Origin: an uncultured Latescibacterota bacterium
GTDB lineage: Bacteria > Latescibacterota > UBA2968 > UBA8231
DNA: 64,000 bases
Direction of reading: 5' to 3'
Assembly: GCA_951813615.1 (NCBI GenBank)
Contig: OX638377.1
Span: 3,434,599-3,498,598 of the forward strand
A program made the position numbers and the translations under genes. The number at the start of each line of letters is the position of its first letter. Within the stretch, counting starts at the first letter, position 1. Shown in pieces: positions 46,937-64,000 of this stretch. Under the pieces are notes generated by a model that was not told the DNA's origin, did no database searches, and worked only from the letters and a program-made list of their open reading frames with translations.

Positions 46937-46966
46937 ATGAGGTTGGACGTAAAGAAAGCAACAAAC

Positions 46967-47956: not shown

Positions 47957-48114
47957 GTGAGACAGTGGCAGCCCCAGCACCCAACACCCAATGGCGTAAT
48001 CACCACCCAACGTCCCATCATCACTTCGCCATCGAGCGGCGGACCGTTGCCACCCCCATCGACTCCCACGGCCCACGGCCCAGAGGGTGCCAAGGCCACC
48101 GACTGCCTCACTAC
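47957..48114 (-). pseudogene. Remnant of an autotransporter-type beta-domain (out of frame, truncated) belonging to decayed array copy A
   Basis: The minus strand encodes ..SSEAVGGLGTLW....GGDYAIGCWVLGLPLSH. This aligns with ..SETVGGLGTLWGRG...GADYAIGRWVLGLPLSHSRGDG of the intact copies, and then stops abruptly at the AKR stop codon. Confidence 0.8.
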
Positions 48115-49383
48115 TCATGGTAAACTCACTTCCTGTCGTCGCGCATCGTTAGCGGCTGTGGTCCGAATTAGACCTCCATCGCCGCGCCGCGAACTCATTC
48201 CGACTGCGCCTTGCAGCGACCCGTCCACTTTGTGGATAGGGTCGTCCGCCACGCCGGGGAAGTAGCGCTCTACGGGCGACCAGTCGGAACTGGCAACGAT
48301 CGTGGGCACCGACCCGACGAATCCAGTGTCCGTGCCTCCCTCGTCGATGCTAATGCCGTTCGCATCGACATCGTCAAATTCCACCTGATAGCGGTATACT
48401 AATCGGTTGGTGTCGGAGCCGGACAGGTACTCTGCCACGCGGGTGTTGAGGTCGTTGGCAGCATCGCCGACCCGAATGACAATCCAAGAGTCGTCCTCGG
48501 GCACGTACACGTCCGTGTTGAACGTCAAGGCGATGTCAATGTTCTCGCCATAGTGATAAGTGCGACCGTTGACTGGTGTCGATATGATCTCGGTCTTGTA
48601 GGCGCGGTGCGGACTGGGACGGCCCTCGACCCGTATCCTGAGAGTCTTGTTGGGATCTCTTTCCCACTTGATACCGCCAGCGCTCCGCAAGCCGAGATAA
48701 TTGTGGAGGGCCCATCCCTCTTTGGCCTCTGAATCTTCTCTGAAGCTGTAGGTTGTAGTGAATTGAGCGACGTTGCCGTTTGCGTGACCTGCGCCGCAAT
48801 TGAGAAGCAAGTAGTAATCCGCGCTCGGCTCTAAATAGGTGTTCTCCGGTGCCTGCCATTCATTGTGTGCAAAGTCGTCCAAGCGACTTCTGGTCAGATC
48901 AGCTACCTTGGTGATAAGGTAGCCCTCGCGGTGATAGAGGCCCGCGTTTATCGTCCTGTACCGGCTCTCATTCGCAGCGCGCACATCTAGCGAAATATCC
49001 GTCAATTCATACCCACCCTGATTCGGGCCGGTTCTAAACCCCTGATACAGTCCGTCCTGATTCTCACACAGGGTTACGATTCTGTCTGATCCTGAAGATT
49101 GCTGCATATTCGTCACGAGTATGGTAATCGGCGAATCGTATTCAGCGCGTGCAGTCACGGCGACGACAAGTGCAGCGGCCACAGCCAAAATCACCGCTCC
49201 AGTCCGGTGCCAGCCACCCTGGGGCTTGGCGGACACGTGGTCTTGCCGTTGCCACAGTCGAACCCGGCGTCTGATATTCAGCCCCCTGAGGTCGCGACGG
49301 CTTGTCGCCCGCCGTTGTAAGGTCCCTCCCCCAACATCTGCCACTATCCGCCTGTCAAGCTTGTCACCCAGCACAGTTATCAT
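48115..49383 (-). CDS. Array copy A: truncated paralog (leader + N-terminal passenger only; Calx-beta and barrel lost)
   Basis: ATG at 49383 after GGGAGG. MITVLGDKLDRRIVAD... and the passenger align with copy C up to ..HKVDGSLQ. The frame then breaks at a deletion junction near 48216-48222 and ends after 37 unrelated codons. This is probably a pseudogene. Confidence 0.7.
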   Translation of the reverse strand: MITVLGDKLDRRIVADVGGGTLQRRATSRRDLRGLNIRRRVRLWQRQDHVSAKPQGGWHRTGAVILAVAAALVVAVTARAEYDSPITILVTNMQQSSGSDRIVTLCENQDGLYQGFRTGPNQGGYELTDISLDVRAANESRYRTINAGLYHREGYLITKVADLTRSRLDDFAHNEWQAPENTYLEPSADYYLLLNCGAGHANGNVAQFTTTYSFREDSEAKEGWALHNYLGLRSAGGIKWERDPNKTLRIRVEGRPSPHRAYKTEIISTPVNGRTYHYGENIDIALTFNTDVYVPEDDSWIVIRVGDAANDLNTRVAEYLSGSDTNRLVYRYQVEFDDVDANGISIDEGGTDTGFVGSVPTIVASSDWSPVERYFPGVADDPIHKVDGSLQGAVGMSSRRGDGGLIRTTAANDARRQEVSLP

Positions 49384-49445
49384 GACCGGCCTCCCTCTCT
49401 TGCATTGCCAGCTAAGATGAAAAACTCCTCTCTGCCAATGCTTAT

Positions 49446-49462
49446 TGCATAAACCGTGCCAA
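49446..49462 (-). promoter_or_regulatory. Sigma54 (-24/-12) promoter of copy A
   Basis: The minus strand reads TTGGCACGGTTTATGCA, i.e. GG-N10-GC with TGGCACG-N4-(A)TGCA, 63 nt upstream of the ATG. Confidence 0.75.
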
Positions 49463-49656
49463 ACTTTTAGTGGACGGCCTAAGTCATTTATAAAAAGGAT
49501 GTTAGGAAAATTAATGCGGGAAGATGAAGAGTGCCGAAATGATGCGGAATTAAACAACTTGCAAGATGCAGAATGAAAAGAAGAGGCGTCTAACTATCTG
49601 AAATCGCGTTAGTTATGGCGCGATTTGCGGTATTTACAGCGGTAACCGCTTACTAT

Positions 49657-49673
49657 TGCAACAGTTGCAACAG
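49657..49673 (-). promoter_or_regulatory. Palindromic upstream element (candidate enhancer/UAS)
   Basis: TGCAACAGTTGCAACAG contains the palindromes TGCAAC-A-GTTGCA and GTTGCAAC. It lies 195 bp upstream of the -24 element. Confidence 0.4.
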
Positions 49674-49772
49674 TCAATTCGGAACGGAGAGGTATTGACC
49701 TAGATTGTCAGCTTGGTCTCTGCCCGGCTGGCAGGTAGGTCGATGATATCTTCCGTAGGTTCCAAAATTGCA

Positions 49773-49808
49773 GACGGGGTCTTCGTCGATGGTGACGAAG
49801 ACCCCGTC
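49773..49808 (-). terminator. Hairpin terminator of copy B
   Basis: Perfect 15-bp stem gacggggtcttcgtc / gacgaagaccccgtc with loop gatggt. On the minus strand it is followed by TGCAATTTTGG. It lies 36 nt after the stop. Confidence 0.6.
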
Positions 49809-49843
49809 GGGTATGGGCCACATGCACGTCTGCCGCTAGCGCT

Positions 49844-52789
49844 CTATGGCGCTGAGAGCGCCAAGTGCAGCATGACCTCGCGGTCCGGTGCCCTGTTGTC
49901 GACAGTGCTCTCGCGCTGCGTCCCCTCAATACCCATCTCCAGCCCTTCCCAGCGCAATAACTCCAGCCGATAGCCCATACGTACCTCGCGGAAGGCCTCA
50001 GACTGCCCCACCCGTAGGTAGGGCGTTCCCGTAGCCCGACCACCGAACACCGCCAGCCCGTAGGCCGCCTCCGCGTCAAGACGACCAGCCGACGCAATCG
50101 CGTCGTTCGCCGCCAGTCCCACCAGCGTCTCCCGCCCCAACAGCGCCGCCACACCGCCCGAGGACACCCCTCCCCAGGACGGCGTCAGCGCCACGGCCGG
50201 ACCCAGCGCCGAAGACGGCGTCGAATCGAAGCGCAGCGACCCTGATACCCTCCAGTCCCGAAAGTCCGAAGTCTCGTGCGCCACCAAGCCACGCACCATC
50301 ACCTGCGCCATCAGCCCCCGCGCCGCATCGGCAAAGACCGTACCGCCGCCTACCTCCACCCCAAAGCCCGTCTCTGCGTCGCCGCCGTCATGGCGCAACC
50401 CCAACTCGACCGTCGGTGTCAGCAACCCACCGCCTAGCGCAAGATCCAAGGACCCCTCCAGCCCCAAGCGCAGGCGGCTCACATCCGCCACCGCCGCGGC
50501 CAGCAGGCCCGACGGATCCACTGCCGCCGCCGAGGTCGTGCGCACCAACAGCGCATCCGACTCAACCGCCAGCGACAGACCGCCGGCTTGCCGTGCGGAG
50601 ACGAGGTCGCCCCGCACTCCGACCGCAGCCATCGTCAGACCCATAGCGGTGTGGTGAGACTCCCCGTCCTTCATCATCAATGCCAAGTCACCCTGACCGT
50701 AACCTGCCGTACCCCACAGCGACAGCCGCTCCGTCAGTTCGTAGCCGGCATAGGGATACAGGCCCGTCAGCGACGACGCCATGCGTCCTTGGCCGCGATC
50801 CGCCGAACGCCAGTTACCGTCCCCCCTGCTGTGAGACAGTGGCAGCCCCACCACCCAGCGCCCAACGGCGTAATCAGCACCCAACATCCCTGTCGTCACG
50901 CCGCCATCAAGCGAGAGACCGTTAGCACTCCCGCCAAAGCCCGAATACCCCCCACGGCCCCAAAGGGTACCAAGGCCACCGACTGTTTCACTACCCACGG
51001 TAAACGCACTTCCCGCCATGAGGTCGCGCATCGTCAGCGACTGCGGCCCGAACTGGACCTCGGTCGCCTCGTCGCGGTTCCATTCCGACTGCGGCTTGAA
51101 GCGATCCTGTGCGGTGACTTCACCTATGCCGCTGAGATCATGGCCCGCAACAGTAGCCTTAATCCCCGCCTCGTGCGGTGCCCTCAGACGCGCCTGCACG
51201 CCGTCGAGCACGCGCTGTGCCACAGTGCGACCAAAGCGCGCCAGCCAAGCTTGTTGCAACGGATCTTCGTTCTCGATCGTGCCCGTCGCCGTGTCGTCCG
51301 CAATACGCGCCCCCGAGGCATTGCTCAAGGTCAGCGTCAGGGTCTCCTCGCCCTCGTCGTGGGCATCGTCGAGCACCGCGACTGAAACCGTCTTCTGCGT
51401 CTCGCCCGCGGCGAAGGTGAGTGTCCCCTCTGCGGCCGTGTAGTCTTGGCCCGCCTGGGCGGTGCCGTCTGCGGTCGCGTAGTCCACCGTCACCGTCTCC
51501 GAGGCCGCCCGGTTCAGCATCACCGTGAATTCGAGCGTTGCGTCCGCCGCCTCCGTCGTCCGCGCATCCGCAATTGACAGCGCCGCTGCCCTTCCGGCGA
51601 TGCAGTGGGCCGACCCGTCCTCCAGGACGGTACAGTGGACCGACCCATCCACCTTGTGGCTAGGGTCATCGGCCACACCGGGGTAATAGCGATCTACGGG
51701 CAACAAGCCTAAACTAGCGACGAGCGTGGGCACCCATCCAACGAATCCGGTGTCCGGCCCGCCCTCGTCAACGCTAAGGCCGTTTGCGTCGGCATCGTTG
51801 AGTTGCACCTCATAGCGGTAGATCAACTGAGTCGTGAAGGAGCCGGACAGGTAGGCTGCCTGGCCAGCCACATCGCCGACCTGAATGCCAATGGACGATT
51901 CGCCCTGCACGTACACGGGCGTGTTGAACGTCAGGGCGATATCGATGTTTTCTCCTACTAGGTAGGTGTCCCCGTTTGTCGGCGTCGATACGATCTCGGT
52001 CTGGTAGGCGCGGTGGTAACTGGGACGTCCCTTGACCTCTATCTTGAGAATCAAGCGAGAGCCCCATTTCCACTCGGGATCACCCGCGGTCCGAAAGCCG
52101 CAATGATCGTGGATTTCCCATCCTTCTTCGGCCCCGGGGTCGTCTTCACTGCTGTAGGTCGTGAGGAATTGGGCCACGTTGTCATTGGCGCAACCTGCCG
52201 TGCAATCAAGCAGGAAGTAATACTCCGTGTCCGGCTCCAGATAGGTATTTTCAGGTGCCCACCACTCATTGGCCGCAAAGTCGTTCAACTGGCCTCTGGT
52301 GAGCTTGGCGACGCGGGTGAAGCCGGATTCGTCCCAGAGGTAGATGCCTGCGTCTATCGTCATGTATCGGCTCTCATGGGTGTCGTGCACATGCAGCACA
52401 ATGCTCGTCAATTCATACCCCCCGAGATTGGGGCCGGTTCTGAATGCCTGATTAAGTCCGTCCTGAGACGCATCCAGCAACACAACTCTCCCCGATGATG
52501 GTTGGTCGGTATTCTTCGCCAGCGTTCTGATCGGCGGATCATACTCCTGAGCAGGGGCAGTCGCCGCGATCACAAGGACGCTGGCTGCCGCCAGCAGCAC
52601 CGCTCCAATCCGCCATGCGCCGCCTTGCGGTCTGGCCGACCCATGGTCTTGCCGTTGCCATAGTCGAACCCGACGCCCGATATTCAACCCTCTGAGGCCG
52701 CGATGGCATGTCGCCCGCCGTTGTGAGTCCTCTGCCCCAGCATCTGCCACCACCCGCTTGTCAAGCTTGTCAATCAGCACAGTTATCAT
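49844..52789 (-). CDS. Array copy B: surface protein with long leader, N-terminal passenger modules, one Calx-beta domain and C-terminal autotransporter-type beta-barrel
   Basis: ATG at 52789 after AGGAGG. Calx-beta signature VTVDYATADGTAQAGQDYTAAEGTLTFAAGETQKTVSVAVLDDAHDEGEETLTLTLSNA. The C-terminal ~370 aa (GGLGTLWGRGGYSGFGG...GADYAVGRWVVGL.LSHS...) show the typical autotransporter beta-domain pattern. Confidence 0.75.
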   Translation of the reverse strand: MITVLIDKLDKRVVADAGAEDSQRRATCHRGLRGLNIGRRVRLWQRQDHGSARPQGGAWRIGAVLLAAASVLVIAATAPAQEYDPPIRTLAKNTDQPSSGRVVLLDASQDGLNQAFRTGPNLGGYELTSIVLHVHDTHESRYMTIDAGIYLWDESGFTRVAKLTRGQLNDFAANEWWAPENTYLEPDTEYYFLLDCTAGCANDNVAQFLTTYSSEDDPGAEEGWEIHDHCGFRTAGDPEWKWGSRLILKIEVKGRPSYHRAYQTEIVSTPTNGDTYLVGENIDIALTFNTPVYVQGESSIGIQVGDVAGQAAYLSGSFTTQLIYRYEVQLNDADANGLSVDEGGPDTGFVGWVPTLVASLGLLPVDRYYPGVADDPSHKVDGSVHCTVLEDGSAHCIAGRAAALSIADARTTEAADATLEFTVMLNRAASETVTVDYATADGTAQAGQDYTAAEGTLTFAAGETQKTVSVAVLDDAHDEGEETLTLTLSNASGARIADDTATGTIENEDPLQQAWLARFGRTVAQRVLDGVQARLRAPHEAGIKATVAGHDLSGIGEVTAQDRFKPQSEWNRDEATEVQFGPQSLTMRDLMAGSAFTVGSETVGGLGTLWGRGGYSGFGGSANGLSLDGGVTTGMLGADYAVGRWVVGLPLSHSRGDGNWRSADRGQGRMASSLTGLYPYAGYELTERLSLWGTAGYGQGDLALMMKDGESHHTAMGLTMAAVGVRGDLVSARQAGGLSLAVESDALLVRTTSAAAVDPSGLLAAAVADVSRLRLGLEGSLDLALGGGLLTPTVELGLRHDGGDAETGFGVEVGGGTVFADAARGLMAQVMVRGLVAHETSDFRDWRVSGSLRFDSTPSSALGPAVALTPSWGGVSSGGVAALLGRETLVGLAANDAIASAGRLDAEAAYGLAVFGGRATGTPYLRVGQSEAFREVRMGYRLELLRWEGLEMGIEGTQRESTVDNRAPDREVMLHLALSAP

Positions 52790-52847
52790 GACCGGCCTCC
52801 TTCTCTTTATGCCAGCTAGGATGAAAACTCCTCTCTGCCAATGCTTA

Positions 52848-52864
52848 TGCATAAACCGTGCCAA
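52848..52864 (-). promoter_or_regulatory. Sigma54 (-24/-12) promoter of copy B
   Basis: The minus strand reads TTGGCACGGTTTATGCA, 59 nt upstream of the ATG. The ORF-track TTG start is simply the TTGG of this element. Confidence 0.75.
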
Positions 52865-53058
52865 GTTTTTAGTAGATGGACTAAGTCCTTTATATAAAGG
52901 ATGTTGGGATAATTGATGCGGAAGGATGGACGGTTCTCGAAATGATGCAGAATGAAACAGTTTACATGACGCAGGATGAAAAGGAGAGGTGGCTAACTCT
53001 CTGAAATCGCGTTAGTTATGGCGTGATTTGCGTCATTTACAGCGGCAACTGTTTAATA

Positions 53059-53075
53059 GTGCAACAGTTGCAACA
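53059..53075 (-). promoter_or_regulatory. Palindromic upstream element (candidate enhancer/UAS)
   Basis: TGCAACAGTTGCAACAG, 195 bp upstream of the -24 element. Confidence 0.4.
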
Positions 53076-53175
53076 GTCAATTCGGAACGGAGAGGTATTG
53101 GCCTGGATGTTGGCTTGGTCCTTACCCGGCTGGCAGGTAGGTTGATGATATCTTCTGTAGGTTCCAAACTTGCGA

Positions 53176-53210
53176 ACGGGGTCTTCGTCGATGGTGACGA
53201 AGACCCCGTC
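53176..53210 (-). terminator. Hairpin terminator of copy C
   Basis: Stem acggggtcttcgtc / gacgaagaccccgt with loop gatggt. The T-tract is weaker (AAGTTTGG). Confidence 0.5.
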
Positions 53211-53244
53211 GGGTATGGGCCCATGCACGTTTGCCGCTAGCGCT

Positions 53245-56200
53245 CTATGGTGCTGAGAGCGCCAAGTGCAGCATGACCTCGCGGTCTGGTGCCATGTTGT
53301 CGACGGTGCTGTTGCGCTGCGTCCCTTCGATACCCATCTCCAGCCCTTCCCAGCGCAATAACTCCAGCCGATAGCCCATACGTACCTCGCGGAAGGCCTC
53401 AGACTGCCCCACCCGTAGGTAGGGCGTTCCCGTAGCCCGACCACCGAACACCGCCAGCCCGTAGGCCGCCTCCGCGTCAAGACGACCAGCCGACGCTGCC
53501 TCGTTCGCCGCCAGCCCCACCAGCGTTTCGCGCCCGAGGAGCGCTGCCACACCACCCGAAGACGGCGCACCCCAAGACGGCGTTAGCGCCACGGCCGGAC
53601 CCAGCGCCGAAGACGGCGTCGAATCGAAGCGCAGCGCCCCCGATACCCGCCAGTCCCGAAAGTCCGAAGTCTCGTGCGCCACCAAGCCACGCACCATCAC
53701 CTGCGCCATCAGCCCCCGCGCCGCATCGGCAAAGACCGTACCGCCGCCTACCTCCACCCCAAAGCCCGTCTCCGCGTCGCCGCCGTCGTGGCGCAGACCC
53801 AACTCTATAGTCGGCGTCAGCGACCTGCCGCCTGCAAGTGCCAAATCTAGGGAACCCTCCAGCCCCAGGCGCAGGCGGCTCACATCCGCCACCGCCGCGG
53901 CCAGCAGGCCCGACGGATCCGCCGCCGCCGCCGAGGTCGTGCGCACCAACAGCGCATCTGACTCGACCGTCAGCGACAGACCGCCGGCTTGCCGCGCGGA
54001 TACGAGATCACCCCGCACACCGGCCGCCGCCATCGTCAGATCCATAGTGGTGTGGTATGACTCTCCCTCCTGCATCATCAACCCTAGGTCACCCTGACCG
54101 TAACCTGCCGTACCCCACAGCGACAGACGCTCCGTCAGCTCGTAGCCGACATAGGGATACAGACCCGTCAGCGACGACGCCATGCGGCCTTCGCCGCGAT
54201 CCACCGAATGCCAACTCCCGTCCCCCCTGCTGTGAGACAGCGGCAGCCCCAGCACCCAGCGCCCAATCGCGTAATCCGCACCAAACATCCCCGTCGTCAC
54301 GCCGCCATCAAGCGCCAGACCGTTAACACTCCCATCAAAACCCGAATACGTCCCACGACCCCAGAGGGTGCCAAGACCGCCGACTGTCTCACTGCCCAAG
54401 GTAAATCCACTGCCCGTCATGAGGTCACGCCTCGTCAGAGACTGTGGTCTGAACTGTGCCCCAGTCGCCTCGTCGCGGCTCCATTCCGACTGCGTCTTGA
54501 AGCGATCCTGCGCGACTTCATCTGCACCGCTCAGGTCATAGCCCGCAACGGTAGCCTTAATCCCCGACTGGTGTGGTGCCCGCAGACGCGTCTGAACACC
54601 TTCGAGCACGCGCTGGGCCGTAGTGCGACCAAAGCGCGCCAGCCAAGCCTGCTGCAACGGATCTTCGTTCTCGATCGTGCCCGTCGCCGTATCGTCCGCA
54701 ATATCCACCCCCGAAGCGTTGCTCAAGGTCAGCGTCAGGGTCTCCTCGCCCTCGTCGTGGGCGTCGTCGAGCACCGCGACCGAAACCGTCTTTTGCGTCT
54801 CGCCCGCCGCGAAGGTGAGCGTTCCATCCGCAGCCGTGTAGTCTTGTCCTGCCTGTGCGGTCCCATCCACCGTCGCGTAGTCCACCGTCACCGCCTCTGA
54901 GGCCGCTCGGCTCAACGTCACCGTGAATGCGAGCGTGGCGTCTGCCTCCTCCATCGCCCGCGCATCCGCAACCCCTACTTGAGGCGTTGCCACGATCTGC
55001 AGTGAGCTAGCCACCTCGTTGTCGATTTCGACGATCACGACGTCGGGCAGTTCGACGTGTTCGCGGCCAGGGCCATCGGTAGACAAGTAGTGGTGGAAGC
55101 GACGCTCGCCACTGGACGTGTCGTTGTCCTGTCGGGCCTCCACCGTCACCGGAAAGGCTTCCTCCCAGTGATGGACATCCGACGAGGTCGCATCCTCGTC
55201 CGGCGAGAACCGCCAAGATTGCTCGCCGAGTGCGACCAGATCGGAGTCGCCGTCGTCTGGTTCCCAAGAGAGGACTACCCACTCTACCGGTCGCCGGTCG
55301 AGCTTGAGTTGGTAGGTCACTTGCTCCCCTTCGCGGACCTCAAGCCGTAAATCGGTGAGCGGGTTGCCGTCGCGGTCGAGAAACGCGACACCCACTTCGT
55401 CGTTGTCGACGATGGCGATTCTGGACTGACACGGGCCGCCGCACTCCGTCCGGTTGGAATCGCGCACTTGAACCTGGTCACTGAGCGAACGATCCCGCGC
55501 TAGCGTTACCATAAAAAGCTCTTCGAGTTCGTCCTCCGCGTCGTCGATCAGCGGCACCTCAATGCTCTTGTGTGCGACCCATCGACCGTCGGCGGATGAG
55601 AATTCCTCCGGCGTGAAGGCCACGGTTTCGCTAACGGAGGCATAATCCACATCGGCCACCGCCGTCGCGCTTTCCGTCGATAGGGTCACTTCGTGGCTCC
55701 GATTTGGTGGCGGAAATCCCCGCTGGGTCTCCATGATGACCTCGACGCTCGCTGCCGCGCCGGTCGCGCCCTCGTCAAAGCGGTACAGGGGCTGGCCCAG
55801 CCGCGCGATCAACGCGGGATTGCCCACCGCCATGCGCACGCTGGCCGCCGCCGGAGCCCCGATGTGGTAGCCAGCCCCCTCAATCACCGTAGCCGTAAGC
55901 GTACCGCTCTGGATCACTCGCTCGTTTTGTTGACTGGCATCAATACGCAGCTCAGCGGCAGTTGCGTTGGCGGGAAACTCGACGCTCTGCATGAGGTCGT
56001 CGGTGTTCAAGAACGACTGCTCCTGTGTCAGCTTGACGTTGACCACAATCGCCTGATCCGACGCCTCGGCCAGCGTCAGGTTGAAAACCACATCGTCTAA
56101 CACGGCGATGTAGGCGTCCCTGCCCGCGCGAATCGTCACCGTCTGTCCCGTCGCCGCCCCGTCGTCGTCGGCAATGGTCACCGTGGCGGTAGCCTGACTT

Positions 56201-58044
56201 CCGGCGCGTATCCCGGCAGGCAGGGTTCCAAAGGAAAGCTCCAAGCTCTCACCGTCGTCGTCTTCGCTGTCGTCGACCGCAGTCACCGTGAAGCTCTGCG
56301 AGGTCTCGCCCCGCGCAAACGTGAGGCGGGTTGTAGACAGAGTGTAGTCGTCGATGGTAGCTCCATCGCCTACAGCGGCGATGATGGGGATAGTCACCGA
56401 GCGGTCGGGGTCCGGATCCAGCTCCACAGTCACCGTCGCCGCCGCTCCGCCCTCGGAGACAGTGAAGGCGTCCACGTCGAACGAAACATCTGCCGATCGA
56501 TCTACCTTGTGACTGGCGTCGGCAGCTACGCCGGGGTAGTCTCGGGATGTCGGGAATGAACCCAGATCGAGGTTGGCCGTGGGGAGTGATCCGCCGAAGC
56601 CCGAGTGTGCCCCTCCCACATCGACGCTGATGCCGTTCGCATCGAAATCAGTAAACTGCACGCGGTAGCGGTACACCAGCCGCTTCGTGCCAGAGCCGGA
56701 TACGTAGTGTGCCGACCGATAGTTGGAGCCGTCGTCTCCGACCCGAATGCCAATGACCGAGTCGTCCGATCCGACAAACGCCTCGGCGGAAAACGTCAGA
56801 GTGACGTCGATGCCCTCGCCGAGCCGGTAGCCATTCCCGTGGGCGGGTCTTGAGGTAATCTCCACATCCGTGACCTGGAGCGATCCGTCCACTTTGTGCT
56901 TGCGGCTGTCCTTCACGCCGGGGAAATAGCGATCTACCGGCAACAAGCCAAAACTGGGGGCAGTTGTGGGGAGTGGTCCGACAAAGCCGGTGTCCGCCCC
57001 CCCCGCATCGACGCTGATGCCGTTGGCGTCGGCATCGCCAATCTGCACTTGGTATCGGTACACCAGCCGATTCGTGCTGGTGCCAGACTGGTAGACTGCC
57101 GTGCGGTAGGTGGGGCCGTCGGCCGCTTCGCCAACTCGAATGCCGATGGTAGACTCGCCATAGAGTGACGAGTACACGTCCGTGTTGAACGTCAAGGCAA
57201 TATCGATGTTCTCACCATACAGATAGGTTTCCCCGTTTACCGGCGTCGATACGATCTCCGTCTTGTACGCACGGTGGGGACTTGCACGCCCCTTGACCCG
57301 TATCCTGAGAACCGCGCTGGGATCGTGATACCATTTGTCGTCAGGTCTCCGAAAGCCCAAGCGATTGGCAAGAGACCATCCCTCTTCGGCCCCCGAATCT
57401 TCACCAAAGCTGTAGGTAACACCGAATTGGGCGACGTTGTCATTTTCACAACCCTCGATACAATCAAGCAGGAAATAGTAGGTCGTATTCGGCTTCAGAT
57501 AGGTATCGGCGGGGGCCAGCCACTCATTTTTCGCAAAGTCGTTCAAGGAACCCGCTCTAATGAGGTCGGCGACCTTGGTGTCACCGTGGTACAGGCCTGC
57601 GAGAATCGTCATGTACCGGCTCTCATGCGTATCTCGCACATACAGCAAGATGCTCGTCAGTTCGTATCCACCCGGATTTGGGCCGGTTGTGAACTCCTGA
57701 TACAGTCCATCCTGGCTCTTACACAGAGTCACCAACTTGTCTGACCCTGAAGATTGATACATGTTCGTCACGAGTGTGGTAATGGGCGGATCATAAAACT
57801 CCTGCGCGGGCGCGGGCACGCCGGAGACAAGCACGCTAGCCGTCGCCAGCAGCACCGCCCCAATCCGCCGTGCGCCGCCTTGAGGTCTGGCCGACACATG
57901 GTCTTGCCGTTGCCATAGCCGAACCCGGTGCCCGATATCCAACCTCCTGAAGCCGCGACGGCTTGTCGCCCGCCGTTGTGAATCCCCTGCCTCCGCATCT
58001 CCCACCACCCGCTTGTCAAGCTTGTCAATCAGCACAGTTGTCAT
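53245..58044 (-). CDS. Array copy C: expanded paralog (duplicated Ig-like passenger module, about five Calx-beta-type domains, autotransporter-type barrel)
   Basis: ATG at 58044 after AGGAG. Two tandem ..EI(V/T)S.P..G..Y..GE.ID(I/V).LTF......IGIRVG......Y.SG..T.RLVYRY.VQ....DANGISVD.GG modules. Clear Calx-beta motifs are present (e.g. VTVDYATVDGTAQAGQDYTAADGTLTFAAGE; DVDYASVSETVAFTPEE). The barrel is near-identical to copies B and D. Confidence 0.75.
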   Translation of the reverse strand: MTTVLIDKLDKRVVGDAEAGDSQRRATSRRGFRRLDIGHRVRLWQRQDHVSARPQGGARRIGAVLLATASVLVSGVPAPAQEFYDPPITTLVTNMYQSSGSDKLVTLCKSQDGLYQEFTTGPNPGGYELTSILLYVRDTHESRYMTILAGLYHGDTKVADLIRAGSLNDFAKNEWLAPADTYLKPNTTYYFLLDCIEGCENDNVAQFGVTYSFGEDSGAEEGWSLANRLGFRRPDDKWYHDPSAVLRIRVKGRASPHRAYKTEIVSTPVNGETYLYGENIDIALTFNTDVYSSLYGESTIGIRVGEAADGPTYRTAVYQSGTSTNRLVYRYQVQIGDADANGISVDAGGADTGFVGPLPTTAPSFGLLPVDRYFPGVKDSRKHKVDGSLQVTDVEITSRPAHGNGYRLGEGIDVTLTFSAEAFVGSDDSVIGIRVGDDGSNYRSAHYVSGSGTKRLVYRYRVQFTDFDANGISVDVGGAHSGFGGSLPTANLDLGSFPTSRDYPGVAADASHKVDRSADVSFDVDAFTVSEGGAAATVTVELDPDPDRSVTIPIIAAVGDGATIDDYTLSTTRLTFARGETSQSFTVTAVDDSEDDDGESLELSFGTLPAGIRAGSQATATVTIADDDGAATGQTVTIRAGRDAYIAVLDDVVFNLTLAEASDQAIVVNVKLTQEQSFLNTDDLMQSVEFPANATAAELRIDASQQNERVIQSGTLTATVIEGAGYHIGAPAAASVRMAVGNPALIARLGQPLYRFDEGATGAAASVEVIMETQRGFPPPNRSHEVTLSTESATAVADVDYASVSETVAFTPEEFSSADGRWVAHKSIEVPLIDDAEDELEELFMVTLARDRSLSDQVQVRDSNRTECGGPCQSRIAIVDNDEVGVAFLDRDGNPLTDLRLEVREGEQVTYQLKLDRRPVEWVVLSWEPDDGDSDLVALGEQSWRFSPDEDATSSDVHHWEEAFPVTVEARQDNDTSSGERRFHHYLSTDGPGREHVELPDVVIVEIDNEVASSLQIVATPQVGVADARAMEEADATLAFTVTLSRAASEAVTVDYATVDGTAQAGQDYTAADGTLTFAAGETQKTVSVAVLDDAHDEGEETLTLTLSNASGVDIADDTATGTIENEDPLQQAWLARFGRTTAQRVLEGVQTRLRAPHQSGIKATVAGYDLSGADEVAQDRFKTQSEWSRDEATGAQFRPQSLTRRDLMTGSGFTLGSETVGGLGTLWGRGTYSGFDGSVNGLALDGGVTTGMFGADYAIGRWVLGLPLSHSRGDGSWHSVDRGEGRMASSLTGLYPYVGYELTERLSLWGTAGYGQGDLGLMMQEGESYHTTMDLTMAAAGVRGDLVSARQAGGLSLTVESDALLVRTTSAAAADPSGLLAAAVADVSRLRLGLEGSLDLALAGGRSLTPTIELGLRHDGGDAETGFGVEVGGGTVFADAARGLMAQVMVRGLVAHETSDFRDWRVSGALRFDSTPSSALGPAVALTPSWGAPSSGGVAALLGRETLVGLAANEAASAGRLDAEAAYGLAVFGGRATGTPYLRVGQSEAFREVRMGYRLELLRWEGLEMGIEGTQRNSTVDNMAPDREVMLHLALSAP

Positions 58045-58101
58045 GACCGGTCTCCTTCTCTTGCGTGTTAGGATGAAAAACTTCCTCTCTGCCAATGCTT
58101 A

Positions 58102-58118
58102 TGCACAAACCGTGCCAA
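58102..58118 (-). promoter_or_regulatory. Sigma54 (-24/-12) promoter of copy C
   Basis: The minus strand reads TTGGCACGGTTTGTGCA, 58 nt upstream of the ATG. Confidence 0.75.
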
Positions 58119-58313
58119 ACCCGTAGCGGATGGACTAAGTCATTTATATAAAGGAAGTTAGGAACATTGATGCGGACGGACGGACCGTTCCCGAAATGAT
58201 GCAGAACGAAACAATTCGAGAGACGCAGAATGAAAAGGAGAGGCGGCTAACTATCTGAAATTGCGTTACTTATGGCGCAGCTTGCGGCATTTGCAGCGGC
58301 GACTGTTTACTAT

Positions 58314-58330
58314 TGCAACAGTTGCAACAG
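58314..58330 (-). promoter_or_regulatory. Palindromic upstream element (candidate enhancer/UAS)
   Basis: TGCAACAGTTGCAACAG, 196 bp upstream of the -24 element. Confidence 0.4.
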
Positions 58331-58389
58331 TCGGTTCGGATGGAGAGGATTGGCCTAGATTGTCGGCCTAGTTGCTGCCTAAGCAGTGT

Positions 58390-58455
58390 ATGAAGAGCCG
58401 TTTGGCTTGCCGTTCGGATGACCATATAAGGGGCCAAGCCAAGCGGGCAGGTAGG
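58390..58455. repeat. About 66-bp copy of the 3' end of the aldo/keto reductase gene (47892-47958) embedded in the D-C intergenic unit
   Basis: atgaagagccgtttggcttgccgttcggatgaccatataaggggccaagccaagcgggcaggtaggt compared with atgaagagccgtttggcttgccgtttggccggccatacaaggggcctggccaagccggcagataggt. Shorter, degenerate versions (..ggcttggtc...ccggctggcaggtaggt) lie at about 49712-49741 and 53113-53142. Confidence 0.8.
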
Positions 58456-58489
58456 TTGATGATATCTTCTGCAGGTTCCAAACTTGCGA

Positions 58490-58524
58490 ACGGGGTCTTC
58501 GTCGATAATGACGAAGACCCCGTC
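58490..58524 (-). terminator. Hairpin terminator of copy D
   Basis: Stem acggggtcttcgtc / gacgaagaccccgt with loop gataat. It lies 35 nt after the stop. Confidence 0.5.
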
Positions 58525-58558
58525 GGGTATGGGCCCATGCACGCCTGCCGCTAGCCCT

Positions 58559-61498
58559 CTATGATGCTGAGAGCGCCAAGTGCAGCATGACCTCGCGGTC
58601 GGGTGCCCTGTTATCGACGGTGCTCTCGCGCTGCATCCCCTCAATACCCATCTCCAACCCTTCCCAGCGCAATAACTCCAGCCGATAGCCCATACGTACC
58701 TCGCGGAAGACCTCAGACTGCCCCACCCGTAGGTAAGGCGTCCCCGTAGCCCGACCGCCGAACACCGCCAGCCCGTAGGCCGCCTCCGCGTCGAGACGAC
58801 CAGCGGACGCGGCTTCGTGCGCCGACAGCCCCACCAGCGTCTCTCGCCCCAACAGCGCCGCCAACCCGCCCGAAGACGGCGCACCCCAGGACGGCGTCAG
58901 CGCCACGGCCGGACCCAGCGCCGAAGACGGCGTCGGATCGAAGCGCAGCGACCCCGAGATCCGCCAGTCCCGAAAGTCCGCAGTCTCGTGCGCTACCAGA
59001 CCACGCACCATCACCTGCGCCATCAGACCCCGCGCCGCATCGGCAAAGACCGTACCGCCGCCTACCTCCACCCCAAAGCCCGTCTCTGCGTCACCGCCGT
59101 CGTGGCGCAGTCCCAACTCGACCGTCGGCGTCAACGACCTGCCGCCGGCAAGCGCAAGCTCCAGAGAACCCTCCATCCCTAGGCGCAGGCGGCTCACATC
59201 CGCCACCGCCGCGGCCAACAGGCCCGACGGATCTGCCGCGGCCGCCGAGGTCGTGCGCACCAACAGTGCATCCGACTCGATCGCCAGCGATAAACCGCCG
59301 GCTTGCCGTACGAGGTCGCCCCGCGCCCCAACGGCAGCCATCGTCAGATCCATATCAGTGTGGTGCGATTCCCCGTCCTTCATCATCAATGCCAGGTCAC
59401 CCTGACCGTAACCCGCCGTACCCCACAACGACAGACGCTCCGCGAGTTCGTAGCCGACGTAGGGATACAGACCCGTCAGCGCCGACGCCATGCGGCCTTG
59501 GCCGCGATCCACCGAATGCCAACTCCCGTCCCCCCTACTGTGAGACAGCGGCAGCCCCAGCACCCAGCGCCCAATCGCGTAATCAGCACCCAACATCCCC
59601 GTCGTCACCCCACCATCGAGCGCTAGCCCGTTAGCACCCCCACCAAAGCCCGAATACGCCCCACGGCCCCAGAGGGTACCAAGGCCGCCGACGGTCTCAC
59701 TACTCATGGTAAACGCACTTCCAGGCACCAGATCACGCATCGTCAACAATTGTGGTCCGAACTGGACCTCAGTCGCCTCGTCGCGGTTCCATTCCGACTG
59801 CGGCTCGAAGCGCTCTTGCACGGCGACCTCGCCTGCACCGCTCAGGTCATAGCCCCCAACGGTAGCCTTAATCCCCGACTCGTGTGGTGCCCTCAGACGC
59901 GCCTGCACGCCGTCGAGCACGCGCTGTGCCACGGTGCGACCAAAGCGCGCCAACCAAGCTTGTTGCAACGGATCTTCGTTCTCGATGATGCCCGTCGCCG
60001 TATTCTCCGCAATACGCGCCCCCGAGGCGTTGCTCAAGGTCAGCGTCAGGGTCTCCTCGCCCTCGTCGTGGGCATCGTCGAGCACCACGACTGAAACCGT
60101 CTTACGCGTCTCGCCGGCTGCGAAGGTGAGCGTTCCGTTCGCGGTCGTGTAGTCTTGGCCCGCCTGGGCGGTGCCATCCGCAGTCGCGTAGTCCACTGTC
60201 ACCGTCTCCGAGGCTGCCCGGTTCAGTATCACTGCGAATTCGAGCGTGGCGTCCGCTGCCTCCGTCGTCCGTGCATCCGCCACGGCCAGCGCCGCCGCCC
60301 TTCCGGCGATGCAGTGGAACGACCCGTCCTCTAGGACGGTGCAGTTGACCGCCCCGTCCACCTTGTGGCCAGGGTCATCGGCCACGCCGGGGTAATAGCG
60401 ATCTACGGGCCACAAGCCCAAACTGGCGACGAGTGTGGGCACCCTCCCAACGAATCCGGTGTCCGGCCCTCCCTCGTCAACGCTGATGCCGTTTGCGTCG
60501 GCATCGTTGAGTTGCACCTCATAGCGGTAGATCAACTGAGTCGTGAAGGAGCCGGACAGGTAGGCTGCCTGGCCAGCGACATCGCCGACCTGAATGCCAA
60601 TGGACGATTCGCCCTGCACGTACACGGGCGTGTTGAACGTCAGGGCGATATCGATGTTTTCACCTGCCACGTAGGTGTCTCCGTTTGCCGGCGTCGATAC
60701 AATCTCGGTCTGGTAGGCGCGGTGGTAACTGGGACGTCCTTTGATCTCTATCTTAAGAATCACAGTAGAGGCCCATTTCCACTCGGGATCGCCCGCGGTC
60801 CGAAAGCCGCAATGATCGTGGATATCCCATCCTTCTTCGGCCCCAGGGTCGTCTTCCCTGATGAAGGTCGAGATGAATTGGGCCATGTTGTCATTGTCGC
60901 AACCTGCCGTGCAATCGAGCAGGAAGTAGTACTCCGTATCCGGCTCCAAATAGGTATTCTCTGGGGCCCACCACTCATTGGCCGCATAGTCGTCCAATTG
61001 GCCTCTGGTGAGCTTGGCGACGCGGGTGAAGCCGGATGATTCATCCCAGAGGTAGATGCCTGCGTCTATCGTCATGTACCGGCTCTTATGCGTGTCGTAC
61101 ACATGCAGCACAATGCTCGTCAATTCATACCCCCCGAGATTGGGGCCAGTTCTGAATCCCTGATTCAGTCCGTTCTGAGACGCATCCAGGGCTACGGCCG
61201 TGTCTGAGAATTGGCCGGTATTCTTCGCCAGCGTTCTGATCGGCGGGTCGTATTCCATCCCACGTGCAGTCACGGCGACGACAAGGGTCGCAGCCACGGC
61301 CAGAAGCACCGCTCCAGTTCGGCGCCAGCCACCCTGGGGTTTGGCCGACACATGATCTTGCCGTTGCCATAGCCGAACCCGGTGCCCAATATCCAACCCC
61401 CTGAGGCCGCGACGGCTCGTCGCCTGCCGTTGTGAGTCCTCTGCCCCAGCATCTGCCACCACCCGCTTGTCAAGCTTGTCAATCAGCGCAGTTATCAT
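58559..61498 (-). CDS. Array copy D: surface protein with long leader, passenger modules, one Calx-beta domain and autotransporter-type beta-barrel
   Basis: ATG at 61498 after AGGAGG. Collinear with copy B over its whole length, with the same Calx-beta and barrel signatures. Confidence 0.75.
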   Translation of the reverse strand: MITALIDKLDKRVVADAGAEDSQRQATSRRGLRGLDIGHRVRLWQRQDHVSAKPQGGWRRTGAVLLAVAATLVVAVTARGMEYDPPIRTLAKNTGQFSDTAVALDASQNGLNQGFRTGPNLGGYELTSIVLHVYDTHKSRYMTIDAGIYLWDESSGFTRVAKLTRGQLDDYAANEWWAPENTYLEPDTEYYFLLDCTAGCDNDNMAQFISTFIREDDPGAEEGWDIHDHCGFRTAGDPEWKWASTVILKIEIKGRPSYHRAYQTEIVSTPANGDTYVAGENIDIALTFNTPVYVQGESSIGIQVGDVAGQAAYLSGSFTTQLIYRYEVQLNDADANGISVDEGGPDTGFVGRVPTLVASLGLWPVDRYYPGVADDPGHKVDGAVNCTVLEDGSFHCIAGRAAALAVADARTTEAADATLEFAVILNRAASETVTVDYATADGTAQAGQDYTTANGTLTFAAGETRKTVSVVVLDDAHDEGEETLTLTLSNASGARIAENTATGIIENEDPLQQAWLARFGRTVAQRVLDGVQARLRAPHESGIKATVGGYDLSGAGEVAVQERFEPQSEWNRDEATEVQFGPQLLTMRDLVPGSAFTMSSETVGGLGTLWGRGAYSGFGGGANGLALDGGVTTGMLGADYAIGRWVLGLPLSHSRGDGSWHSVDRGQGRMASALTGLYPYVGYELAERLSLWGTAGYGQGDLALMMKDGESHHTDMDLTMAAVGARGDLVRQAGGLSLAIESDALLVRTTSAAAADPSGLLAAAVADVSRLRLGMEGSLELALAGGRSLTPTVELGLRHDGGDAETGFGVEVGGGTVFADAARGLMAQVMVRGLVAHETADFRDWRISGSLRFDPTPSSALGPAVALTPSWGAPSSGGLAALLGRETLVGLSAHEAASAGRLDAEAAYGLAVFGGRATGTPYLRVGQSEVFREVRMGYRLELLRWEGLEMGIEGMQRESTVDNRAPDREVMLHLALSAS

Positions 61499-61560
61499 GA
61501 CCGGCCTCCTTCTCTTGCGTTGCCAGCTAGGATGAAAGACTCCCTCTCTGCCAATGCTTA

Positions 61561-61577
61561 TGCACAAACCGTGCCAA
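61561..61577 (-). promoter_or_regulatory. Sigma54 (-24/-12) promoter of copy D
   Basis: The minus strand reads TTGGCACGGTTTGTGCA, 63 nt upstream of the ATG. Confidence 0.75.
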
Positions 61578-61772
61578 ACCCGTAGCGGATGGACTAAGTC
61601 CTTTGTATAAAGGAAGTTAGGAACATTGATGCGGACGGACGGACCGTTCCCGAAATGATGCAGAACGAAACAATTCGAGAGACGTAGAATGAAAAAGAGA
61701 AGCGCCTAACTATCTGAAATCGCGTTAGTTATGGCGCGGGTTGCAGAGTTTACGGTGGCAAATGTTTATTAT

Positions 61773-61789
61773 TGCAACAGTTGCAACAG
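61773..61789 (-). promoter_or_regulatory. Palindromic upstream element (candidate enhancer/UAS)
   Basis: TGCAACAGTTGCAACAG, 196 bp upstream of the -24 element and about 60 bp after the stop of the activator gene. Confidence 0.4.
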
Positions 61790-61850
61790 TCAATTCGGAA
61801 CGGAGCGATATTGGCCTAGAGGTCGGCTTAATTGCTGCCTAGCCAGTTAT

Positions 61851-63755
61851 TCACTCCTCCGCCAACAGATTGTATTTTCTCAACTTCCGGTACAGGGTCA
61901 CGCGATTGATATTCAGCGTTTGGGCGGCCTTGGTGATGTTCCAATCCAAGGCTTCGAGAGCGTGGACAACAGCTCGCCGCTCGGCTTCCTGCAGCGAAAG
62001 GGGGGAGTGGGCAGGATCTTCGGGATCCGTTGGAGACGGAACCAAGACGGAAAGTTGAGGAGGGAGGCTGCTGACTTGCAGTCTGTCCGTGGTTTCCAAC
62101 AGCAGGGCGCGTTCAATGGTATTTCTGAGCTCGCGCACGTTGCCTGGCCAGTCATACGCGAGCAAGGTTTGCAGCGCCGCCGGGGAAATCCCGCGCGTGG
62201 ATTCGTTGGCGCGTTCGGCATAGTCCTGCAGAAAATGGGCTGCCAACAGGGGAACATCCTCGCGGTGTTCTCTGAGCGGTGGGATGACGAGGGGAAAAGC
62301 AGCCAAGCGATAGAACAGGTCCGCGCGAAACCCGCCATCTTTCACCGCGCTTTCCAAGTCCCTGTTGGTCGCCGCAATCACGCGGATGTCAATGGGAATC
62401 GTAGCTGTTCCACCCACCCGCTGGATTTCTCGCTCTTCTAAGACGCGCAACAACTTGGCTTGCAGCGCGAGGGGCATGTCGCCAATTTCGTCGAGCAAAA
62501 CGGTGCCGCCTTGGGCGTGCTCAAACTGCCCGATGCGCCGCGTGGCCGCTCCGGTAAAAGCCCCGCGTTCGTGTCCGAACAACTCGTTTTCGATCAGCGT
62601 CTCGGGAATAGCAGCGCAATTGACCGCGACAAAGGGGCCGCTCTTTCTCGGACTGTTGTAGTGAATCAGCTTAGCGACGAGCTCCTTACCGGTGCCGCTT
62701 TCGCCTTGAACCAGCACTGTAATGTCGCTTTCAGCCGCCCGCTGCATCAAGGCGTACACATGCTGCATGTTTTTGCTTTTGCCCACCATACCGTCAAAGG
62801 CGTACGTCGTTCCGAGTTCGGCGCGCAAGCGCAAGACCTCGGCTTTCATCTGCTCGCTCTCAACCTCTTTGGACACGTCCCGGTACATGACAATATGGCC
62901 CATGTCGTGTACGGGTGCTGTCGAGCGATAAAACAGCCGAGGCGTCGAGTCACCAGCTTCGGTAGCTTCTTCCTCCAAATCTCCCGCGTGGTCCAAAAAC
63001 AACTCGCGCCCCAATTCAGGCAGACCGGGAGGCCGGAGGCGCTCCCCAATGCGTTCAATGAGGTCACTTGGCGATATTTGCTTCAACTCGCTTTCCGTGG
63101 CGTCAAGGAGCTTCTCATACCCCTGATTCGCCACCTGCAAGCGTCCCTCGGCATCGAACATGCCGATGGCATCTCCGGTCGCGTCGAGCACTGCTTGGAG
63201 TCTTTGATTGCTGGATTCCAGTTGCTGATTGCTATCTTCAAGTTCCCGCTGGTGCTTTGCCAATTCCTGTTCAATGTTCCACTTCCCAGTAAGCGAAAGC
63301 GTGATCTGCTGAATCTCCTCGCGCGAAAACGGCTTGCGGATGTAGAGCAATTTGTGCAGCAATTCCATGTCGTTGACGATCTCAGAGAGCGTCTTATCCG
63401 AGTATGCGGTCATGATGACGATCTCGATGTCCTGCTCGAATTGCCGAATCTGGCGCACGGTTTCAATGCCATCAGTACCCGGGGGCATTCTGATGTCAAT
63501 GTAGGCCAACGCAAAGGGACGGTTCGATTCTTGGCCTGCTTTGACCATTGCGCAGGCTTCCTCCCCGCTTGTCGCATGGGAAAGTTCAAACTGCGGCAGA
63601 AAGGATTTATCGCTCTGCGAAACAAACGCCGCCGCCAACTCATCCGTTGCTCTCTTGGTCAAGCCGGAGGTCAGCATCTCTTCAAAGTCGTTGTGAATTT
63701 CCTCTTGGTCATCAACGACCAGCACGCGGTAGTTCCAAGAGTTGTTTGGTTTCAT
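61851..63755 (-). CDS. Sigma54-dependent response regulator (REC - PAS - AAA+ sigma54-interaction - Fis-type HTH)
   Basis: N-terminal receiver domain ([10 protein letters not shown] ... [15 protein letters not shown]). PAS-like [21 protein letters not shown]. Walker [15 protein letters not shown] loop ([13 protein letters not shown]). C-terminal [36 protein letters not shown]. Confidence 0.92.
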
Positions 63756-63897
63756 AAAGCCACCTCTATAGGTGATCGATCATAAGAAGCCTTTTTAAAA
63801 CTCTGCTGACACGTCGAGTCGCTTGATCAACAGATGGATCATAGCGAGCGTCGCTATCGAGATACCGTCTTGCTACTTTTGGGTATCACCAGAAACA

Positions 63898-63914
63898 AGC
63901 ACGATCCGTGCCAA
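63898..63914 (-). promoter_or_regulatory. Sigma54 (-24/-12) promoter candidate upstream of the activator gene
   Basis: The minus strand reads TTGGCACGGATCGTGCT, with correct GG-N10-GC spacing and the same TTGGCACGG -24 half as the four array promoters. It lies about 143 nt upstream of the ATG at 63755. Confidence 0.55.
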
Positions 63915-64000
63915 CTTTTTGTAACAAATAGCCAACTCCCTGCAGATAAAGCAGTTAGAGAATATTTGGCAACCGCAAAAGATTTTGGCAGTGTTGCAGA

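Follow-up and report, generated by a model that had tools for sequence, protein, structure and literature searches.

The window considered here is a stretch of 64,000 nucleotides (nt) from contig OX638377.1 (GenBank assembly GCA_951813615.1), attributed to an uncultured Latescibacterota bacterium. Near its end, four tandem genes for large, predicted surface proteins (D, C, B and a decayed copy, A) lie behind a gene for a bacterial enhancer-binding protein (bEBP). The locus is likely to be a two-component, sigma-54-dependent regulon, the products of which are probably calcium-dependent attachment proteins in a sponge host. An earlier reading of the window from its letters (hereafter the sequence-only reading) had described four minus-strand paralogs with one shared unit structure, and they are found as it said: D, C and B are intact open reading frames (ORFs) and A is a shorter, truncated one. 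The perfect hairpins of 14-15 bp that it saw at the ends of B, C and D were likewise located, and a perfect hairpin was looked for after copy A and not found, in agreement with the proposed loss of its terminator. The genes and hairpins are as follows.

61851-63755, minus strand: activator gene, a response-regulator-type bEBP of 634 amino acids (aa), REC-PAS-AAA+-HTH_8
58559-61498, minus strand: gene D, a predicted surface protein of 979 aa; after a putative signal peptide it has choice-of-anchor R, an Ig-like domain, Calx-beta, a helix and a beta-barrel
58490-58523, minus strand: 14-bp perfect hairpin after gene D
53245-58044, minus strand: gene C, a 1599-aa paralog with three Calx-beta stretches
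53176-53209, minus strand: 14-bp perfect hairpin after gene C
49844-52789, minus strand: gene B, a 981-aa paralog and the query throughout the analysis (Calx-beta E value 2e-20)
49773-49808, minus strand: 15-bp perfect hairpin after gene B
48115-49383, minus strand: copy A, a decayed paralog of 422 aa with its ATG at 49383, without Calx-beta, barrel or terminator

Along their entire length, B and D share 89% identity. The 3' 1.85 kb of C, encoding Calx-beta, helix and barrel, is 89% identical to both, and its 5' 1.5 kb is 76% identical. Copy A is ~75% identical to the other three over its first 1.5 kb (49712-48215), and then passes abruptly to a 270-bp piece of the barrel region (48222-47957); A is therefore a decayed copy, and choice-of-anchor R is the only domain left in it. 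The D-C spacer repeats the last 66 nt of the adjacent aldo-keto reductase gene (58389-58456 vs 47891-47958, 87% identical), which reads as the footprint of a tandem duplication at its junction.

Each paralog has the element TGGCACGGTTT(A/G)TGC upstream of an AGGAGG-ATG start. TGGCACGNNNNNTGC has five exact minus-strand matches in the window, at 49447, 52849, 58103, 61562 and 63899. They place GG and GC 10 bp apart within TGGCAC-N5-TTGC(A/T), with 11 of 12 consensus positions and exact GG-N10-GC spacing. The distance from GC to ATG in the paralogs is 58-63 nt, and AGGAGG stands 6-7 nt 5' of the ATG.

63899-63914, minus strand: -24/-12 element of the activator gene, TTGGCACGGATCGTGC, 143 nt upstream of its ATG
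61562-61577, minus strand: -24/-12 element of gene D, TTGGCACGGTTTGTGC
58103-58118, minus strand: -24/-12 element of gene C
52849-52864, minus strand: -24/-12 element of gene B
49447-49462, minus strand: -24/-12 element of copy A

Both promoter claims of the sequence-only reading, a sigma-54-type element 58-63 nt before the ribosome-binding site and ATG of each unit and a similar one in front of the activator gene itself, are borne out by these exact matches. The activator's TTGGCACGGATCGTGC recurs identically in the nearest relative, L093 (position 9843), where two perfect dyads, TGTTGCAAATTGCAACA and TGTTGCATTTTGCAACA (9630 and 9748), precede it. The same element also folds as a weak 6-bp hairpin with a T-rich tail.

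Over their full extent, the four paralog upstream regions share 88% identity, so the agreement of the promoters inside the window reflects recent duplication and does not amount to four independent observations. Comparison was extended to eight related loci (L001, L003, L087, L088, L089, L091/L086, L092/L085 and L093). There, the -24/-12 elements are nearly invariant in ~20 promoters and the surrounding DNA has diverged: TGGCAC-N6-TGC is kept in all 12 promoters of alignment A3 at a mean identity of only 52%. TGGCAC(G/A)-N5-TGC precedes every adhesin gene with its own intergenic region, and the element lies 57-65 nt from the ATG. Gene L088b, which has a short spacer, retains the leader and has lost the -24/-12 element. 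In 72 complete distant members of the protein family, from other phyla, the motif is at background, with 3 matches against 3.2 expected (0.032 per kb). Because the element is near-invariant in relatives and at background frequency in distant members, the sigma-54 wiring appears to be both conserved and specific to this lineage, to which, as far as sequences tell, it is confined. The coding strand of the intergenic regions showed no sigma-70-like site.

The sites to which the activator would bind differ from those first proposed. The sequence-only reading had pointed to a palindrome ~195 bp upstream of each promoter, and TGCAACAGTTGCA is indeed present in four exact copies (49657, 53060, 58314 and 61773; 0.16 matches on average in shuffled sequence), 195 nt upstream of TTGGCAC in all four units. 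However, on the coding strand it reads as CTGTTGCAA-CTGTTGCAA, a tandem 9-mer, and the palindrome is the junction of a 9-bp duplication restricted to the window and to L088, L089 and L093, its nearest relatives. It is not the ancestral enhancer unit, and a second, proximal site had been missed. The likely enhancer, judged from the aligned promoters, is a 7-3-7 dyad, TGTTGCA-N3-TGCAACA, occurring twice per promoter. Its centres lie at -196 to -215 and at -87 to -90 from the -24 GG (~20 promoters, two dyads in most), with the proximal dyad at -87 to -90 in 15 of them. At the distal position, more distant relatives carry TGTTGCA-ATA-TGCAACA (perfect, L087), TGTTGCA-ATA-TGCAGCA (L003) or TTGTGGTA-AAA-TACCACAA (L086). 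The adhesin gene of L087 has one perfect upstream dyad, TGTTGCAATATGCAACA. With up to 2 mismatches allowed, TGTTGCA-N3-TGCAACA has no match in 1.5 Mb of unrelated loci. Dyads in two copies are thus shared across the regulon as predicted binding sites, and they appear in the window as follows.

63992-63998, minus strand: TGCAACA, the right half of the activator promoter's proximal dyad, the remainder of which is past the window end; the site is homologous to TGTTGCATTTTGCAACA at 9748 of L093
61763-61789, minus strand: distal enhancer region of promoter D, two tandem copies of CTGTTGCAA, with the palindrome at 61773-61785 and the centre at -196
61656-61672, minus strand: proximal dyad of promoter D, TGTTTCG-TTC-TGCATCA, 3 mismatches, centre at -89
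58304-58330, minus strand: distal enhancer region of promoter C, tandem 9-mers and a degenerate dyad
58197-58213, minus strand: proximal dyad of promoter C
53050-53076, minus strand: distal enhancer region of promoter B
52943-52959, minus strand: proximal dyad of promoter B, 2 mismatches
49647-49673, minus strand: distal enhancer region of promoter A, with more degenerate dyads (more than 3 mismatches)
61706-61720 (D), 58247-58261 (C) and 52993-53007 (B), minus strand: block 2, ATTTCAGATAGTTAG, between the two dyads
61594-61620 (D), 58135-58161 (C) and 52881-52907 (B), minus strand: block 4, an imperfect dyad, CTAAC-TTCCTTT-ATAC-AAAGGA-CTTAG

The distal region of promoter D overlaps a degenerate dyad, TGTTGCA-ATA-ATAAACA, that aligns with the perfect TGTTGCAATATGCAACA of L087; other variants in the window include CTGTTGCAACTGTTGCAATAATAAACA and TGTTTCGTTCTGCATCA. 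The same dyad motif stands upstream of adhesin genes and of activator or kinase genes. The kinase genes of L003 and L087 are preceded by TGGCACAATTTATGC, and that of L087 also has a dyad at -87. Since the activator gene has its own -24/-12 element, and dyads or TGGCACAATTTATGC accompany activator and kinase genes, the circuit is probably positively autoregulated. In a lineage with a TGTGGTA/TACCACA dyad, the recognition helix of the activator reads DIDRTTLHRKL, whereas it is N(I/V)NR(V/T)TLYRKL elsewhere. The dyad and the helix-turn-helix (HTH) sequence change together in L091, and this fits co-evolution of site and recognition helix, with few lineages compared.

Two further blocks are conserved in these promoters. 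Block 2, ATTTCAGATAGTTAG, is kept in the 12 promoters of alignment A3 and agrees at 7-8 of 9 positions with WATCAANNNNTTR, the IHF core consensus; with a match of that size only, an IHF site was left as an idea. Block 4, of the general form CTAAC-TCCTTT-N4-AAAGGA-CTTAG, stands downstream of the proximal dyad and upstream of the -24 element. Its arms change symmetrically in relatives (TCCTTG/CAAGGA in L001, CTAACCTCCT/AGGAGGTTAG in L086 and GTCTTT/AAAGAC in L087b), and positions 63931-63960, upstream of the activator, hold a similar block. It could be the site of a second regulator or a bending element. A role as RNA or terminator was considered and set aside, as the block precedes the predicted start and lacks a T-run. 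The upstream activator sequence of NifA (TGT-N10-ACA) was also rejected as an identity for the dyad, in which N11 separates TGT and ACA. A metagenome scan with the pattern dyad-N75-82-TGGCAC proved too unspecific: it returned 120 mostly unrelated loci, L155 being the only true family promoter among them. Unrelated metagenome contigs (L130, L149, L153, L139, L184 and L138) carry TGTTGC-N5-GCAACA dyads ~80 nt upstream of good sigma-54 promoters, and a broader set of enhancer-binding proteins may make use of the TGTTGC half-site.

The gene directly upstream of the array on the same strand had been read as REC-PAS-AAA+(GAFTGA)-HTH, and all of these domains and motifs are present. Pfam matches comprise Sigma54_activat (PF00158, 242.6 bits, E = 2e-72), Response_reg (PF00072, 44 bits), HTH_8 (PF02954, 50 bits), AAA_lid_14 and PAS_7, and the translation contains GAFTGA, GESGTGK and LLDEIG. 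By inspection, the REC domain has the DD pair, the D in AYIDIRMP, the T in MTAYSD and the K in RKPF. The protein therefore combines an AAA+ domain bearing GAFTGA and Walker A/B motifs with a receiver Asp and a Fis-type HTH. Its best NCBIfam similarity is to AtoC, below the cut-off, and orthologs (62-95% identity) keep the same architecture. A kinase gene lies directly upstream of the activator in all eight related loci; the corresponding position in the window is beyond base 64000. In L093, the activator of which is 95% identical, the kinase consists of PAS and HATPase_c, with PAS beginning at residue 5, and is AtoS-like (below the NCBIfam cut-off). It ends 427 nt upstream of the activator, so the kinase of the window should begin just past base 64000.

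A check of synteny in related genomes had been suggested, and the order of kinase, activator and adhesin gene(s) is kept in all eight loci. The loci share a run of genes that goes from Ldh_2 through transketolase, CT398, OMP decarboxylase, aminotransferase, GSDH and aldo-keto reductase to the adhesin gene(s), and on to the activator, the PAS histidine kinase and Peptidase_S15; it corresponds to positions 34474-47956 of the window. The strand pattern is also preserved: Peptidase_S15 (minus), kinase, activator, one to four adhesin genes and aldo-keto reductase (minus). Adhesin genes vary in number: L089 has a single one, L088 has two, L092/L085 and L091/L086 have two or three, L093 has at least three and the window has four. 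None of the 72 distant family members has an adjacent activator, and the fetched loci contain just one other activator, in L050, ~7 kb upstream of the match. Taxonomic labels of the relatives conflict (Entotheonella, Latescibacterota, Gemmatimonadota). Activators 87-91% identical to that of the window are named Gemmatimonadota in NCBI, and by these names the lineage carrying the sigma-54 wiring is probably Gemmatimonadota.

Some of these loci have features of their own. At L087 13630-15524, two dyads, block 4 and TGGCACGGATTATGC precede an unrelated 517-aa ORF without a family match and without similarity to the adhesins, a possible further member of the regulon. A hybrid regulator (GAF-PAS-HisKA-HATPase-REC-Trans_reg_C) is encoded inside or beside adhesin arrays at L085 5177-7588 and L090 2474-4891.

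From these elements, domains, conserved positions and gene orders, we infer a circuit of the following kind. A soluble PAS-domain histidine kinase, placed just past the window end by analogy with the nearest relative, would phosphorylate the REC domain of the REC-PAS-AAA+-HTH activator. The activated protein would bind the 7-3-7 dyads ~196-215 and 87-90 bp upstream of the -24 GG and oligomerise, and ATP hydrolysis via its GAFTGA loop would open the sigma-54 holoenzyme at TGGCACGGTTT(A/G)TGC. D, C, B and the decayed A would be separate transcription units with their own promoters, B, C and D also having their own terminator hairpins, and the activator gene, under the same type of promoter, would probably stimulate its own expression. 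The products would be Sec-exported to the outer membrane, where a C-terminal helix and an autotransporter-like beta-barrel would anchor them and the choice-of-anchor R beta-sandwich, the Ig-like domains and the membrane-proximal Calx-beta domain would be displayed. Their most likely role is calcium-dependent attachment in the sponge host. The sequence-only reading had proposed that one activator switches on the whole family, each gene from its own promoter, and every part of this that sequence comparison can address (synteny, shared dyad, conserved promoters) has held.

The surface proteins share a modular architecture. All close members begin with a charged extension of ~55 aa containing the invariant RVRLWQRQDH (52625-52789, 57880-58044, 61334-61498 and 49219-49383 in the window), which is missing from distant members. 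It is followed by a hydrophobic signal-like segment ending in APAQE. Choice-of-anchor R (NF041539) scores 45.9 bits in B, and Ig-like sandwiches stand between it and Calx-beta. The Calx-beta assignment put forward earlier, with PF03160 as its check, is upheld by Pfam E values of 2e-20 to 2e-39. The domain also matches NCX1 in the PDB by sequence (E = 3e-18), and its model superposes on NCX1 CBD1 with a TM score of 0.81-0.87 at 33% identity. It is a Calx-beta domain by sequence and by predicted fold, and calcium binding is predicted.

The C-terminal domain is less easily classified. The sequence-only reading took it for an autotransporter barrel and named PF03797 as the check. The C-terminal 472 aa of B do reach 36.6 bits against this model (cut-off 26), but only if scanned alone; PF03797 is not reported for full-length B, though it is precomputed for several homologs. 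The match is weak and the barrel is atypical of type V. An AF2 model of the domain (pLDDT 77.7) has a 26-residue helix (domain residues 2-27), a disordered linker and ~19-20 strands, and the barrel domain (49847-51007 in B; also in C and D) is ~385 aa long, compared with the 12 strands and 250-300 aa of type Va. A phmmer search of PDB sequences with the barrel gave noise only. The C termini of B, C and D read ...LHLALSAP (49847-49870 in B), and the close clade also has ...LALR and ...LAVQ. Because the PF03797 score is weak, NCBIfam has no match, ~19-20 strands are predicted and Foldseek TM scores to autotransporter barrels are at most 0.48, the proteins are best called autotransporter-like and are not filed as classical type Va.

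As a family, the barrel domain is large: it has 7,236 representatives of 50%-identity clusters, is always C-terminal and occurs in proteins of 360 to 4,465 aa. Members occur in metagenome-assembled genomes (MAGs) of Alpha- and Gammaproteobacteria, Nitrospirota, Gemmatimonadota, Acidobacteriota, Binatia, Latescibacterota and others. Across MAGs of many phyla (L006-L084), the module of Calx-beta, helix and barrel is 35-49% identical and the N-terminal passengers differ, which suggests that the module has spread laterally among sponge symbionts. MAGs verified as sponge-derived and carrying the family include IRC3_bin_8, SB0665_bin_10, RHO3_bin_20 and CAR4_bin_12, from Ircinia, Rhopaloeides and Carteriospongia, and the organism of the window is itself a probable sponge symbiont.

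Several readings of the regulation compete with a single neighbouring activator. The promoters might depend on sigma-54 and yet be served by an enhancer-binding protein encoded elsewhere, the neighbouring one controlling other genes. The downstream array members of L085/L092 and L086/L091 are several kb from the activator with unrelated genes between, L010 and L087b carry the promoter type elsewhere in the genome, and the hybrid regulator found inside or near some arrays is a further candidate. We consider this improbable, given that activator adjacency is kept in all eight related loci, that the same rare dyad occurs in the activator or kinase promoter and the adhesin promoters, and that dyad and HTH change together in L091; the remote members fit a one-activator regulon. 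The -24/-12 matches themselves might be incidental, carried along with the duplicated unit, with transcription starting at an unrecognised promoter of another sigma factor. The near-invariance of the motif amid flanks at 52% identity, its fixed distance to the ATG, its presence before the unrelated 517-aa gene in L087 and its failure to exceed background in distant family members make such a coincidence very improbable, as does the lack of a sigma-70-like site on the coding strand. What speaks for it is the close similarity of the paralog promoters, by which conservation inside the window proves nothing, the L088b gene with its leader intact and its element lost, and the terminator-like look of the small hairpin 5' of the activator.

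The regulation may be as proposed and the products something other than host adhesins, namely calcium-binding envelope or matrix proteins for aggregation, biofilm or a protective coat. This is a serious, if somewhat unlikely, alternative. The passenger domains come without a demonstrated ligand, choice-of-anchor R is a family without an assigned function, the passenger model matches confidently only Calx-beta domains, and the kinase, consisting of PAS and HATPase_c, looks cytoplasmic, so that its signal would be internal and not host contact. Attachment to the host is favoured, however, by the enrichment of Calx-beta in sponge-associated genomes across phyla (PMC9531527, PMC11706023), by the presence of the family in verified sponge MAGs of several phyla, and by rapid variation in copy number and N-terminal sequence, typical of host-interaction surface proteins. 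A bolder version of host attachment, which we regard as quite improbable, would make the locus a symbiosis switch: an intracellular cue would trigger display of Calx-beta domains that bind or imitate the sponge Aggregation Factor, and the symbiont would be retained or spared phagocytosis. The anchor would then be an unclassified type-V-like translocator, its barrel far above 12 strands, passed laterally among sponge symbionts of many phyla, each lineage adding its own regulators, here sigma-54.

Several points weigh against the two-component, sigma-54-dependent regulon of calcium-dependent attachment proteins that we prefer. The promoters within the one genome are recent duplicates, and the related genomes are not fully independent of one another. 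The RpoN box was not found in the window or in the fetched loci, and the sigma-54 dependence of paralog transcription is a prediction from the promoter elements. The dyads of the adhesin promoters in the window are degenerate, with 2-3 mismatches (more than 3 in A); because of this, and because the distal one has been remodelled by the 9-bp duplication, binding is less certain there than in relatives. The C-terminal barrel has no NCBIfam match, and its Foldseek hits are weak and led by large barrels. The window proteins have no C-terminal aromatic residue, whereas distant members end in W or F, as is usual for outer-membrane barrels. The name adhesin and the host target are likewise ones that we infer.

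The rest of the window is of other interest. A low-GC (48%) insertion at 43895-46936, between the GSDH and aldo-keto reductase genes, encodes a 730-aa N6_N4 DNA methylase and a 281-aa ORF without a family match. It is missing from the syntenic loci L088 and L089 and probably represents a mobile restriction-modification island. Positions 38306-38677 hold RNase P RNA (class A, 305.8 bits), and 40754-40831 hold tRNA-Pro(TGG); since the RNase P gene overlaps the listed ORF 38549-39940, the first part of that ORF is probably non-coding. TPR, NHL and FG-GAP/ASPIC proteins are also encoded. An Rfam scan of the array locus gave no match.

Sponge symbionts are uncultured, and knowledge of their 'eukaryotic-like' surface proteins is limited to enriched domains and does not extend to when they are made. 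The locus offers a concrete, testable circuit of a cytoplasmic PAS kinase, an NtrC-class activator, predicted 17-bp sites, sigma-54 promoters and Calx-beta proteins, every part of which can be rebuilt in a surrogate host. For sigma-54 biology it would add a new class of target genes and no new mechanism. The more unusual by-products of the analysis are the barrel family and its sponge link: thousands of barrel-anchored proteins appear to have been acquired across phyla, with regulation added per lineage.

Among known systems, NtrB/NtrC and AtoS/AtoC (as at glnAp2) resemble the circuit in the REC-AAA+(GAFTGA)-HTH_8 activator, the kinase gene that lies alongside it in the relatives and the TGGCAC-N5-TGC type of promoter. 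NtrC sites are 17-bp 7-3-7 dyads present in two copies upstream, the same geometry as that of the dyads described here. However, the activator of the window has an extra PAS domain between REC and AAA+, the kinase appears soluble, and the targets are surface proteins instead of metabolic genes. One dyad also lies 107-125 bp from the other, and the distance from the proximal dyad to the predicted start is ~113 bp; two more conserved blocks stand in between. In PilS/PilR, which governs type IV pilin, as in other cases where sigma-54 activators govern surface or adhesion structures, a two-component enhancer-binding protein turns on a surface adhesion structure via sigma-54. Here, by contrast, the targets are a tandem autotransporter-like family, each gene with its own promoter, and the sensor appears cytoplasmic.

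The CtcB/CtcC sigma-54 regulon of Chlamydia trachomatis includes membrane proteins and the secreted proteins CT049-CT051 (PMC7482065). These are termed 'Pmp-like' and 'secreted' in that paper, which never uses the word autotransporter. The regulon is the nearest published case found of sigma-54-controlled, type-V-related passenger-like proteins, but it has no tandem array behind the activator. CtcC is not known to possess a DNA-binding domain and would accordingly lack enhancer sites. The sequence-only reading did not recognise sigma-54/bEBP control of a type-V-like Calx-beta family as a described system; full-text literature searches likewise found no description of sigma-54 control of an autotransporter family.

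The proteins themselves resemble type Va autotransporters (EstA, BrkA, NalP, EspP) in the succession of putative signal peptide, passenger, alpha-helix and C-terminal barrel matching PF03797, and autotransporter barrels are among the Foldseek hits. They differ in the long barrel with ~19-20 predicted strands instead of 12, in the beta-sandwich passenger and, in the close clade, in the lack of a terminal aromatic residue. Sponge-associated bacteria from several phyla show an enrichment of PF03160 (PMC9531527, PMC11706023), and the sponge Aggregation Factor is rich in Calx-beta (PMC5400394, PMC11670116); a link between the family and the Aggregation Factor is speculation. Those studies count domains, whereas the barrel-anchored family and its regulation are not described there. 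Set beside all these systems, the control mechanism is canonical, and it is the regulon, with its target genes, that is new.

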